Shown: positions 928 through 4,651, counted from the stretch's first letter. The stretch is 4,651 nucleotides of DNA from a virus (IMGVR_UViG_2663763456_000003), one strand, 5' to 3'. Notes: generated by a model from the letters alone, not told the origin. Made by a program: numbers and translations.

Positions 928-1422
928 ATGGCTGGAACGGCGGGGCGTTCCGGGCGTCGCCCCAAGCCAACGGCGCGCAAGGCGCTGGCCGGAAACCCCG
1001 GCAAGCGAGCCCTGAACAAAGATGAACCTGTTTTTACGCCCATCAAAGGTGTTGAGCCACCAGAGTGGTTCGCTGAAGAAGATCTCCCTCTCGCCACGAT
1101 CATGTGGCAACTGACAACCAAAGAACTCTGCGGTCAGGGCCTGCTGTGCGTGACTGACCTGGCGGTACTTGAGCGGTGGTGCGTGGCCTATGAGTTCTGG
1201 CGACGTGCCGTGAAAAATATTGCCATACAGGGCAACACCATCACCGGTGCAATGGGCGGCAGGGTCAAAAATCCGGAGCTGACCGCCAAAAAAGAACAGG
1301 AGTCCGAGATGAGCAGCACGGGGGCAATGCTCGGACTCGACCCCAGCAGCCGCCAGCGTCTGATTGGCCTGGCGGGGCAGAAGAAAGCCACTAACCCGTT
1401 TCTGAAAATTATCGAATCATGA
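928..1422 (+). CDS. Terminase small subunit (P27 family-like, HK97 gp1-like)
   Basis: ATG 928 preceded by AGGAG (915-919, 8-nt spacer); the ORF track's GTG 919 start is 3 codons upstream in the same frame. About 164 aa, basic N-terminus ([29 protein letters not shown]...). Size, composition and position directly upstream of and overlapping the large terminase gene support the call. Stop TGA 1420-1422 overlaps the terL ATG (ATGA). Confidence 0.85.
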
Positions 1423-3152
1423 GCCGGAAATCTTACCCCAACGTAAATGCTGCAAATCAGTATGCCCGGGATGTCGTGCGCGGAAAGATTGTTGCCTGCC
1501 AGTTTGTGATTCAGGCCTGCCAGCGCCATCTTGATGACCTGATGGCGGAAAAAAGTAAGTCGTTTCGTTACCGCTTCGACAAGGACCTGGCTGAACGGGC
1601 CGCGAAATTTATTCAGCTGTTGCCGCACACCAAGGGGGAGTGGGCATTCAAACGGATGCCCATCACGCTGGAGCCGTGGCAGCTATTTGTGATCTGCTGT
1701 GCGTTTGGCTGGGTCAATAAAGGCACCCGGTTGCGCCGCTTCCGGGAGGTGTACACCGAAATCCCCCGTAAGAACGGCAAATCAGCAATCTCTGCCGGTG
1801 TTGCCCTGTATTGTTTTGCCTGTGATAACGAGTTTGGCGCGGAAGTGTATTCCGGTGCCACGACAGAGAAACAGGCGTGGGAAGTCTTTCGCCCGGCGCG
1901 ACTGATGTGTAAACGCACACCCATGCTGACGGAAGCGTTCGGGATTGAGGTTAACGCCTCAAACATGAACCGTCCGGAGGATGGCGCGCGGTTTGAACCG
2001 CTGATCGGCAACCCAGGTGATGGTTCATCACCCCACTGTGCCGTGGTTGATGAATATCACGAGCATGCCACCGATGCGCTTTATACCACAATGCTTACCG
2101 GGATGGGGGCGCGACGTCAGCCACTGATGTGGGCCATCACCACCGCCGGGTACAACATTGAGGGGCCGTGCTACGACAAGCGGCGGGAAGTCATCGAGAT
2201 GCTCAACGGCTCGGTGCCTAACGATGAACTGTTCGGGATCATCTATACCGTTGATGAAGGTGACGACTGGACCGGCCCGCAGGTGCTGGAAAAAGCCAAT
2301 CCAAATATTGGCGTGTCGGTTTATCGCGAATTTTTGTTAAGTCAGCAGCAGCGTGCGAAAAATAACGCCCGTCTGGCAAACGTCTTTAAAACAAAACACC
2401 TCAATATCTGGGTGTCGGCGCGTTCGGCGTATTTCAACTTGGTGAGCTGGCAGAGCTGCGAGGATAAATCACTGACCCTTGAGCAGTTCGAGGGGCAGCC
2501 GTGCATTCTGGCCTTTGACCTGGCGCGTAAGCTGGATATGAACAGCATGGCGCGACTTTATACCCGCGAGATTGACGGTAAAACGCATTACTACAGTGTG
2601 GCCCCGCGTTTCTGGGTACCGTATGACACGGTGTACAGCGTCGAGAAAAATGAAGATCGACGGACAGCCGAACGCTTTCAGAAATGGGTGGAAATGGGCG
2701 TTCTGACCGTTACCGATGGTGCGGAGGTGGATTATCGCTACATCCTCGAGGAGGCCAAAGCGGCGAACAAAATCAGCCCGGTCAGTGAGTCACCCATCGA
2801 CCCCTTCGGGGCGACCGGGTTGTCACATGACCTTGCTGATGAAGACCTGAATCCCGTCACTATCGTCCAGAACTTCACCAATATGTCCGATCCGATGAAA
2901 GAGCTGGAAGCAGCGATTGAATCGGGACGTTTTCATCATGACGGCAATCCCATCATGACCTGGTGTATCGGCAACGTGGTCGGCAAAAACATGCCGGGTA
3001 ACGATGATGTGGTGAAACCCGTCAAAGAGCAGGCGGAAAACAAAATCGATGGTGCAGTTGCGCTGATTATGGCGGTTGGCAGAGCCATGCTGTACGAGAA
3101 AGAAGACACGCTGTCTGACCACATTGAGTCCTACGGGATCCGCTCGCTTTAA
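1419..3152 (+). CDS. Terminase large subunit (ATPase + nuclease)
   Basis: 577-aa ORF translationally coupled to terS. Walker A-like P-loop IPRKNGKS (nt 1761-1784), Walker B-like hydrophobic stretch ending in DE (CAVVDE, nt 2037-2054), and a C-terminal region with acidic residues consistent with an RNase H-like nuclease ([11 protein letters not shown]...). Enterobacterial codon usage throughout. Confidence 0.93.
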
Positions 3153-3163
3153 CTGAGGTAATT

Positions 3164-3346
3164 ATGATCATGCTGATTCTCGCGCCTCTGGTGGGCGTGC
3201 TGGGTGCGCTTTTGCTGGCGTATGGTGCCTGGCTGATTTATCCCCCGGCGGGTTTTGTTGTTGCCGGGGCGCTGTGCCTGTTCTGGTCGTGGCTGGTGGC
3301 GCGATATCTCGACCGTACACGGCAGTCTGTCGGCGGAGGTAAATAG
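3164..3346 (+). CDS. Small hypothetical membrane protein (60 aa, two predicted TM helices), between terL and portal
   Basis: ATG 3164 with GAGGT (3155-3159) upstream; stop TAG 3344-3346. [60 protein letters not shown] has two hydrophobic segments separated by YPPAG and a basic C-tail. Codons are strongly enterobacterial (CTG-rich), unlike the overlapping alternative frame. No homolog recognised from memory. Confidence 0.5.
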
Positions 3347-4502
3347 TGTTCTTTTCGGGATTATTTCAACGAAAAAGCGATGTGCCGGTGACCACGCCAG
3401 CAGAACTGCTGATGCTATCGGGCTGTCATACGACACCTATACCGGAAAGCGGATCAGTAGCCAGCGGGCCATGCGCCTGACGGCGGTCTATTCTTGCGTC
3501 AGGGTGCTGGCAGAGTCTGTTGGTATGCTGCCCTGCAGTCTCTACAAAATCAGCGGTACCCTGAAAACACGGGCGGTGGATGAACGACTGCATAAGTTGG
3601 TTTCGGCAAAACCTAATGGCTACATGACACCGCAGGAATTCTGGGAGCTGGTTATTGTCTGCCTGTGTCTACGGGGGAATTTTTACGCCTACAAGGTAAA
3701 GGCACTGGGAGAAGTGGTGGAGCTTCTTCCGATAGATCCGGGCTGTGTGGAACCGAAGCTGAACAGCCAGTGGCAGCCGGTTTATCAGGTGACGTTTCCG
3801 GATGGTTCCGTGGATGTGTTGACCCAGAATGAAATCTGGCATGTGCGCACCCTGACGCTGGATGGACTTGTCGGGCTGAATCCCATTGCGTATGCGCGTG
3901 AGGCCATTTCACTGGCAGCGGCAACCGAGGAGCACGGTGCCAGGTTGTTTAGTAATGGTGCGGTGACATCCGGTGTGTTGCGTACGGAACAAAAGCTCAC
4001 GCCGGATGCTTACGAGCGTCTGAAGAAAGATTTTGAGGAGTGTCACACGGGGCTTGGCAATGCTCACCGCCCGATGATTCTGGAAATGGGGCTGGACTGG
4101 AAGTCGATGGCGCTGAACGCCGAGGACAGTCAGTTCCTGGAAACCCGCAAGTTTCAGCTGGAAGAAATCTGTCGTCTGTTCCGGGTGCCGTTGCACATGG
4201 TGCAGAACACCGATCGCGCCACCTTCAACAATATCGAAGAGCTGGGGCTGGGATTTATCAACTATTCACTGGTGCCGTATCTGACCCGCATCGAACAGCG
4301 GATCAACACCGGACTGGTACGAAAAAGTAAGCAGGGCGTTTATTACGCCAAATTTAACGCCGGGGCGTTACTGCGCGGGGATATGAAGTCCCGTTTTGAA
4401 GCCTACGCCACCGGGATCAACTGGGGAATTTACTCTTCCAATGACTGCCGCGACCTGGAAGATATGAATCCGCGTCCCGGTGGTGTAATGCCGATCAGTT
4501 AA
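3346..4502 (+). CDS. Portal protein, HK97 family; 5' end apparently frameshifted (start GTG 3346 in one frame, body from about 3423 to 4502 in another; uninterrupted from ATG 3471)
   Basis: The body (3471-4502; ...QRAMRLTAVYSCVRVLAESVGMLPCSLYK...) has the conserved N-proximal motif and length typical of HK97-family portals and sits directly after terL. GTG 3346 follows a GGAGG SD (3335-3339) by 6 nt and overlaps the upstream stop (TAGTG); it encodes a portal-like N-terminus MFFSGLFQRKSDVPVTTPAELLMLSG but runs into TGA at 3478-3480. The ORF-track start (TTG 3255) has no SD and lies in the poorly coding frame over 3255-3345. The N-terminal boundary is therefore uncertain. Confidence 0.8.
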
Positions 4503-4534
4503 GGATCAGTTGACCGATCCAGTGGCTGTGTAAG

Positions 4535-4569
4535 AATCCGGAAACGCTCACTTGTTTCCGGATTTTTTT
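4535..4569 (+). terminator. Rho-independent terminator-like hairpin downstream of portal
   Basis: Perfect 11-bp stem AATCCGGAAAC (4535-4545) / GTTTCCGGATT (4554-4564) with an 8-nt loop, followed by a T run (4563-4569, 7 T). The T run is on the + strand, matching the direction of the late operon. Confidence 0.6.
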
Positions 4570-4651
4570 ATGCACATTGGACAGGCTCTTGATCTGGTAT
4601 CCCGTTACGATTCTCTGCGTAACCCACTGACTTCTCTGGGGGATTACCTCG
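4570..4651 (+). CDS. Start of an unidentified ORF running off the window end (by synteny possibly the next head gene, e.g. prohead protease)
   Basis: ATG 4570 opens a frame through the window end (MHIGQALDLVSRYDSLRNPLTSLGDYL...) with enterobacterial codons (CTG, CGT, AAC, TAC). There is no clear SD (the start abuts the terminator T run) and only 27 codons are visible, so the call is weak. Confidence 0.3.
   Translation, partial: MHIGQALDLVSRYDSLRNPLTSLGDYL

Follow-up and report, generated by a model that had tools for sequence, protein, structure and literature searches.

The window considered here is the whole of a 4,651-nucleotide stretch of viral DNA (IMGVR_UViG_2663763456_000003), and our subject is the small open reading frame (ORF) at positions 3164–3346 of its plus strand. 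This ORF is ymfR, a genuine protein-coding gene of a prophage of the phiP27/ST64B/SfI type, and we regard both the identity of its product and its membership in the packaging and head operon as nearly certain. YmfR is predicted to be a helical hairpin of the inner membrane. Its gene lies between those for the large terminase subunit (terL) and an HK97-type portal protein, and to the latter it is normally coupled translationally, through a stop–start overlap of one or four nucleotides. The best overall explanation, to which we would give an even chance, is that ymfR is a portal-coupled member of the late operon whose hairpin product acts as a helper of the portal.

YmfR matches the profile of phrog_502 ("membrane protein") over residues 1–55 of its 60 [E = 2.8e-28] and is 97% identical to database proteins. 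At the DNA level the gene is 92–96% identical in phages phiP27, ST64B, SfI, SfII and SfIV as well as others, and phage records name the homolog "membrane protein" or "putative integral membrane protein", L37 in phiP27 and Sb3 in ST64B; the corresponding position of SfII is likewise annotated. The gene is present in 1385 of 5426 complete Escherichia coli genomes, among them that of K-12 MG1655, where it resides in prophage e14, and RefSeq calls it ymfR or "protein YmfR"; the best E. coli match across the gene is only 96%, so that the window probably derives from a close relative of E. coli, such as Shigella. The copies in e14, phiP27 and ST64B are, as in the window, 60 residues long, follow terL after a spacer of 11 nucleotides and overlap the portal gene in the sequence TAGTG. 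Identity of the window protein to those of phiP27, ST64B and common E. coli copies is about 97–98%, and the DNA is about 94% identical to e14. We see no essential difference between the window copy and the other three, apart from the window portal gene, which carries a one-nucleotide deletion and an IS4 insertion. The initial annotation had supposed that the gene might be unannotated, which does not hold: it is already known as a gene, in a family of unassigned function.

Other searches added little to this. NCBIfam has no family for YmfR; Pfam, searched with YmfR and ten distant homologs, gave only sub-threshold hydrophobic noise (TctB, DUF1206, DUF2244); and a sequence-profile search of the PDB with YmfR yielded nothing below E = 0.37. 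Foldseek comparison of an AlphaFold2 model with BFVD found no match at E ≤ 0.001, a two-helix hairpin being too simple a fold for such a search to be informative; the best match was an uncharacterised 58-residue Siphoviridae protein which is probably a family member. Four GenBank phage records (ON470584, ON470603, ON470580 and PQ793804) label the YmfR homolog "head-tail joining protein W". We rejected this name, as there is no Pfam gpW match at E ≤ 1. Lambda gpW does resemble YmfR in that its gene, too, lies between those for the large terminase and the portal (A and B), but it is a soluble alpha/beta protein whereas YmfR is a hydrophobic hairpin. The labels are apparently a positional carry-over from lambda, and wrong for YmfR homologs.

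Spurious ORFs of 60 or more codons are numerous in the window, so that the length of the ORF is no evidence by itself, and the case for a real gene rests instead on the conservation of the frame among homologs. When 31 genomic homologs were compared with the window copy, the pairwise ratio of nonsynonymous to synonymous substitution rates (dN/dS) was 0.15–0.3 at every level of divergence, and the variable sites fell mainly at codon position three. In a gap-free core of 48 codons from 19 representative sequences, the annotated frame contained no stop codon in any homolog and had the lowest ratio of nonsynonymous to synonymous differences (pN/pS) of all six frames (0.42; pS was saturated, at 0.675), against 0.55–1.9 in the remaining five, which held 3–53 stops. 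The pattern argues for a protein-coding gene under purifying selection in this frame only. Interruption or drift of the frame in relatives had been named beforehand as an outcome that would refute the gene, as had its being the 5′ part of a longer portal gene. Neither was found, since the ORF has its own stop in all intact relatives and the portal is read in another frame, starting at the overlap; the proposal that the ORF is a real gene, whose product is a small membrane protein with two transmembrane (TM) helices, therefore stands. An antisense ORF at 3149–3436 (95 codons) was dismissed as a chance ORF, the reverse frames of relatives holding 23–38 stops. As a separate observation, in Shigella flexneri SFBU0723 (locus L014, 4001–4216) ymfR is frameshifted after approximately codon 27, and both terL (99% identity) and the portal gene (88%) are full-length matches; here the small gene has decayed before its neighbours.

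The gene runs from an ATG at 3164 to a TAG at 3344–3346. Upstream, terL (1419–3152, plus strand) is intact, specifies 577 residues with Pfam TerL_ATPase and TerL_nuclease domains, and ends in a TAA at 3150–3152, 11 nucleotides before the ymfR start. The intervening spacer (3153–3163, taactgaggtaattATG) has the same letters in phiP27, ST64B and the E. coli relatives and contains the ymfR Shine-Dalgarno sequence GAGG (3155–3158), five nucleotides before the ATG. Downstream, the Shine-Dalgarno sequence of the portal gene, GGAGG (3335–3339), lies inside ymfR codons 58 and 59, which specify glycine. These codons are therefore under two constraints, which accounts for the invariant C-terminal Gly-Gly of enterobacterial YmfR proteins. 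The junction, ggcggaggtaaaTAGtg, is conserved in relatives and includes the stop–start overlap TAGTG (3344–3348), in which the ymfR TAG and the portal GTG (3346–3348) have one G in common; this is a translational coupling junction between the two genes. In phiP27 and E. coli BE311 (RefSeq) the portal annotation begins at the GTG corresponding to 3346. The layout given in the initial annotation, a 60-codon ORF with its own Shine-Dalgarno sequence, 11 nucleotides beyond the terL stop and with its TAG overlapping a portal-like GTG, was thus present in every coordinate, except that the portal gene which that GTG opens is, in the window, a frameshifted pseudogene. The "strong enterobacterial codon bias" also claimed can be judged from the leucine codons alone (CTG 8, CTC 2, CTT 1, TTG 1), which are consistent with enterobacterial usage.

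The arrangement is kept far beyond the close relatives. Across approximately 190 loci a homolog lies between TerL and an HK97-type portal wherever both flanks are readable. The order terL–homolog–portal was found in 30 of 30 genome loci, drawn from Escherichia, Shigella, Edwardsiella, Mangrovibacter, Scandinavium, Erwinia, Lonsdalea, Serratia and Citrobacter, from a record titled Martelella alba, and from the Halomonadaceae (Salinicola, Halomonas, Vreelandella, Chromohalobacter and Modicisalibacter), and it persists where the portal is only 37–40%, or TerL only 35%, identical to those of the window's relatives. In these 30 loci the gap between terL and the small gene ranges from −7 to +25 nucleotides, and in every case the stop of the small gene and the start of the portal gene have one base in common, as TAGTG, TAATG or TGATG. 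Among 80 viral contigs from IMG/VR with closely related portals, 79 carry an intact 60-codon copy, each with a TAGTG or TAATG junction, and the eightieth ends before this position. A more distant set, comprising 80 diverse viral contigs encoding distant members, was reduced to non-redundant loci with a sizeable flanking ORF: the downstream ORF proved to be a Pfam Phage_portal in 52 of 52 cases and the upstream ORF a TerL in 45 of 47. Overlapping junctions accounted for 45 of the 48 distinct ones in this set, 37 by one nucleotide and eight by four (ATGA). Locus L201 illustrates the order well (HNH, Terminase_4, TerL, small ORF, portal, S78 protease, capsid), and in it, as in L203, terL and the small gene also overlap by ATGA. 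The coupling of ymfR to the portal gene through such overlaps is thus the normal condition.

The family itself is a very large one among phages, comprising phrog_502 and a sister, phrog_7105, described below. Searched with a profile, 1.84 billion representative proteins gave 397 clusters at 50% identity, nearly all of them of 45–90 residues, and a second search of the family gave at least 1896 at 90% identity, most of them from metagenomes. A side observation concerns the ORFs upstream. Among these there was one match to LAGLIDADG_3 and one to Hom_end; the search did not name the locus, but the likely source is the TerL of L159 (290–3454), which is 1055 residues long and would bear an intein or homing-endonuclease insertion.

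Junctions of this kind raise the possibility that ymfR is a translational coupling device, a short leader ORF whose translation brings ribosomes to the portal start and so fixes the ratio of TerL to portal, its peptide being secondary. The nearly universal overlap of one or four nucleotides, the portal Shine-Dalgarno sequence in the last ymfR codons, a start which is itself coupled to or overlaps terL (at the spacings given above, with ATGA in L201 and L203) and the variable sequence of the C-terminal tail would all suit such a role. A pure spacer, however, would not retain an amino acid motif in which G21 and G35 are invariant in 86 sequences, nor would one expect purifying selection in a family of this breadth, and phages HK75, CharmingMan and PotUPM1 couple terL to portal directly without any leader. 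We therefore consider a mere coupling device unlikely.

Next in rank, and also unlikely, comes the proposal of the initial annotation that ymfR is an inserted moron, an accessory gene which the late operon has picked up and whose small inner-membrane product serves superinfection exclusion, as does HK97 gp15, or modulation of the host envelope. Morons are sporadic, carry their own promoter and terminator and often deviate in composition. YmfR does share with the HK97 gp15 type of moron a small inner-membrane product and a place among structural genes; phrog_502 is assigned by PHROGs to the category "moron, auxiliary metabolic gene and host takeover"; the gene is absent from HK97-like phages; and it is intact in decayed prophages, such as those of the window and K-12 e14, whose terL and portal genes are damaged. 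In other respects it differs. Its position and portal-start overlap are fixed across the approximately 190 loci with very divergent flanking genes, and sporadic presence was not seen, the gene being found in all 30 genome loci, in all 80 distant viral loci and in 79 of the 80 close ones, and absent only in the separate HK97-like lineage. Neither a sigma-70-like promoter nor a terminator was detected on the plus strand near the ORF, and an 11-nucleotide gap upstream with a one-nucleotide overlap downstream leaves no room for signals of its own. Its G+C content follows that of its neighbours in every host, at loci whose flanks range from approximately 48 to 66%. Mean pairwise identity over 68 non-redundant loci is 0.47 for the YmfR core (a figure inflated by hydrophobic composition), 0.35 for TerL and 0.41 for the portal, so that the core is at least as conserved as its neighbours. 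The PADLOC defence models gave no family at E ≤ 1 for YmfR and two distant homologs; the PHROG category appears to derive solely from the label "membrane protein"; and in the S. flexneri locus mentioned above it was the small gene that was frameshifted while terL and portal remained intact. As a possible parallel we considered ORFs 3–5 of SPP1, which lie between terL and portal, but these are morons that the phage can do without, and they have not been described as membrane hairpins, so that little can be learned from the comparison.

Constant position and coupling to the portal gene argue that ymfR, as far as sequence comparison can tell, behaves as a lineage-conserved member of the late packaging and head operon whose product is made alongside the portal, rather than as a moron expressed from the lysogen. 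Co-expression with the head genes, which the initial annotation had also proposed, survives the loss of the moron: lacking a promoter and terminator of its own, and joined stop to start with the portal gene, ymfR is co-transcribed with terL and portal and, by the design of its sequence, co-translated with the latter. In e14, ymfR rose 2^4.5-fold together with other e14 genes under an SOS-inducing treatment (PMC10012262), which is consistent with induction-dependent expression.

YmfR is strongly hydrophobic, with a grand average of hydropathy (GRAVY) of 1.16. AlphaFold2, run on an alignment of 28 sequences, predicts helices at residues 2–25 and 27–57 with a break at Pro27–Pro28 (mean pLDDT, the model's own confidence score, 75), and together with hydropathy this agrees with the two hydrophobic helices and basic C-terminal tail first noticed in the sequence. 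From the model, hydropathy and conservation, TM helix 1 is placed at approximately residues 2–25 (3167–3238), the predicted periplasmic turn Y-P-P-A at residues 26–29 (3239–3250), TM helix 2 at approximately residues 30–46 (3251–3301) and the predicted cytoplasmic tail at 3302–3343, this last being basic and variable in sequence, with the ribosome-binding site of the portal gene in its final codons. Residues invariant in close, mostly enterobacterial homologs are P8, G11, G14, L18, G21, W23, Y26, G30, G35, C38, L39, W41 and S42, of which G11, G14 and G21 belong to the first helix and G30, G35, C38, W41 and S42 to the second. In a wider set of 86 family members the conserved heart is the turn with its flanks, [SA]YGAW[LM][IV]YPPAG[FY]I[VT]xG; G21 and G35 remain invariant and the turn is exactly four residues long in 86 of 86. 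The window protein carries the core motif, [SA]YGAW..Y.PAG[FY], at residues 19–31. Lysine plus arginine average 1.7 per protein in the N-terminal tail, 2.0 in the C-terminal tail and 0.1 in the loop. Charges in both tails and nearly none in the loop fit a hairpin with both termini inside, so that YmfR is predicted to be an inner-membrane helical hairpin of N-in/C-in topology with a four-residue periplasmic turn. Four members of the family (P0153, P0179, P0182 and P0197) are tandem duplications in which a protein of 102–122 residues contains two YmfR-like hairpins; this is a hint that the hairpin may function in dimeric or oligomeric form.

Which of its two neighbours the small gene follows can be gauged from loci at which one has been exchanged. 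In 108 locus pairs with TerL less than 45% but portal more than 65% identical, the small proteins were 61% identical, compared with 69% for pairs in which both neighbours are alike and 43% for those in which both have diverged. Phage SfV has a terL of the window type almost to its end, but a different portal and a small ORF of the phrog_7105 type (PMC3851460). The TerL-swapped pairs and SfV together tie the small gene to the portal and head side, and a link to the portal, though not an exclusive one, is likely on these comparisons. The portals encoded beside the small gene (loci L121–L200) begin M-x-G-L-F-G-x-L-A or MFFPGLF, and those without it (L116–L119) have different N-termini that are approximately 20 residues longer; the short N-terminal motif could be a contact site or merely a marker of lineage.

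The sister family, phrog_7105, cross-hits phrog_502 and includes small ORFs of Salmonella phage F1055, SfV and Vibrio phage K254, for the last two of which hhalign gives probabilities of 94.5% and 90.7%, respectively, against the YmfR family. Like YmfR these are hairpins with two TM helices (52–67 residues) encoded in the slot between terL and portal and overlapping both genes, and their homology to YmfR is distant; unlike it, they have a degenerate YPPAG turn motif and accompany a different portal subtype (approximately 30% identity). The SfV member (locus L120, NC_003444, 2289–2450) is an unannotated ORF of 53 codons with two predicted TM helices that fills a supposed 99-nucleotide gap between terL and portal, its ATG overlapping the terL stop (ATGA). 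The annotated start of the SfV portal, GTG 2392, is probably too far upstream; GTG 2440 yields the typical N-terminus, VLLDALFRSK.

With regard to function we might tentatively suggest, by analogy, that YmfR assists the assembly of the portal or prohead as a late, membrane-embedded factor, a proposal which we consider possible and less than probable. The hairpin would act in the inner membrane late in infection and would help the portal, either tethering or nucleating the initiation of the portal ring and prohead, or holding the packaging complex at the membrane. In T4 the portal initiator gp20 assembles on the inner membrane, helped by gp40, and contacts YidC (PMC9958956). T4 gp40, a phage-encoded factor on which this membrane-bound portal initiator depends (PMC9958956), is the only well-known precedent for what is proposed here.

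Several points weigh against such a helper. Between gp40 and YmfR there is no sequence relationship, the comparison being one of analogy only, and in T4 genes 40 and 20 do not lie side by side. No membrane is involved in assembling HK97 proheads. Phages HK75 (a relative of HK97), CharmingMan, Klebsiella ST899-OXA48phi17.2 and Pseudomonas PotUPM1 pass from terL straight to portal with no small gene, and from HK97-type phages without ymfR it follows that the function is not intrinsic to this type of head. YmfR has almost no soluble surface, its tails in the family being of 0–30 and approximately 5–15 residues, and any contact with portal or TerL must therefore use these short tails or occur within the membrane. 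Over all locus pairs the partial Spearman correlation of small-protein identity is 0.27 with the portal and 0.25 with TerL, and hydrophobic composition inflates similarity statistics of this sort. In the metagenomic phage L203 an ORF of 246 codons (5144–5884, no Pfam match) intervenes before the portal, and it is to terL that the small gene is coupled, by ATGA. It is on account of the equal correlations and of L203, the only clear break of small-gene/portal adjacency observed, that we do not regard the link to the portal as exclusive. Finally, the literature searched contained no functional study of YmfR, of the phiP27 and ST64B membrane proteins or of small membrane proteins encoded between terminase and portal; what was found on the family amounts to gene lists and one transcriptome table. 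The direct order from terL to portal that the initial annotation ascribed to HK97 is borne out by its relative HK75. The gene is accordingly lineage-specific, not universal, and its absence from HK97 does not make it foreign to the module.

Two further alternatives start from the hairpin itself. A small protein with two TM helices resembles a pinholin, and YmfR might be a holin-like or lysis-timing protein, a hairpin of the class II type which forms or modulates membrane lesions late in infection. The likeness to the class II holins and pinholins, such as S21 of phage 21, is one of architecture: approximately 60–70 residues, two TM helices, N-in/C-in topology, helices rich in small residues (glycine and alanine) and a basic C-terminal tail; "Holin" also occurs among the weak fold matches, at a non-significant E of 4.8. 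YmfR differs from them in that its gene is never found in a lysis cassette, a separate essD-rrrD-rzpD set lying upstream in relatives (L003) and Rz/Rz1 at 108–413 in the window; it matches no holin family of Pfam or PHROGs; and the Met1/Met3 pair of the window copy, which might recall a dual start, is not conserved, homologs beginning MFL or MIL. A lysis role would, moreover, leave the strict linkage to terL and portal unexplained, and we think it improbable. Least probable of all is a virion-associated hydrophobic protein, packaged at the portal vertex and released to help DNA across the inner membrane, which the coupling to the portal gene and the hydrophobic hairpin might suggest, but for which a four-residue loop and very short tails offer little capsid-binding surface, no virion proteomics in the literature searched mentions YmfR, and inner-membrane passage in long-tailed phages is normally attributed to tape-measure and tail-tip proteins.

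A portal-coupled member of the late operon remains the reading we prefer. The genes of the window are, 5′ to 3′, the Rz/Rz1 spanin pair (108–413, with Rz1 embedded at 169–351), an HNH endonuclease (456–806) directly upstream of a P27-type small terminase (919–1422), the large terminase, ymfR and the HK97-type portal. In phiP27 (L001) a cos site is annotated between the HNH and small terminase genes, at 366–375 of that locus. The portal gene (3346–4485, plus strand), recognized by Pfam Phage_portal, TIGR01537 and alignment to phiP27, ST64B and E. coli, is a pseudogene. Comparison with phiP27, ST64B and E. coli BE311 reveals a missing base between 3407 and 3408, where these relatives have a G, and the frame opened by GTG 3346 consequently stops at 3480, after 44 codons; the remainder of the Pfam portal domain is read in the 3255–4502 frame, and restoring one G produces an open portal frame of 380 codons. 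The apparent extension of the portal frame to a TTG at 3255 was rejected as an artefact of the frameshift, this frame being open only through the one-nucleotide deletion. Similarity to portals ends at 4485, cutting off approximately 33 codons from the 3′ end, and 4486–4651 is the end of an IS4 element whose transposase begins with ATG at 4570 (MHIGQALDLVSRYDSL...). Some E. coli IS4 matches align from window base 4470, 16 nucleotides before the inferred end of the element. By its sequence, then, the prophage is defective, with ymfR itself intact.

Several annotations may be put right as a result: the "W" labels are wrong, the "moron" category is unsupported, and copies have been missed in some genomes, SfV for example. 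The comparison adds evidence that a very large number of HK97-type phages encode a membrane hairpin in a strictly syntenic position and coupled to the portal. The gene has so far been catalogued as a nameless "membrane protein", and the comparative picture is instead that of a conserved, unexplained partner in a well-studied phage module. If YmfR acts on the portal, a membrane step would be added to HK97-type head assembly. One may go further, though with more doubt than attends the helper role, and suppose that the phrog_502 and phrog_7105 hairpins are a dedicated and unrecognised membrane component of head morphogenesis in a large clade of HK97-type phages, synthesised in cis with the portal and anchoring or nucleating the portal ring, the initiation of the prohead or the packaging complex. 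Were this true, membrane-initiated head assembly, documented mainly for T4 through gp40 and gp20, would become widespread.

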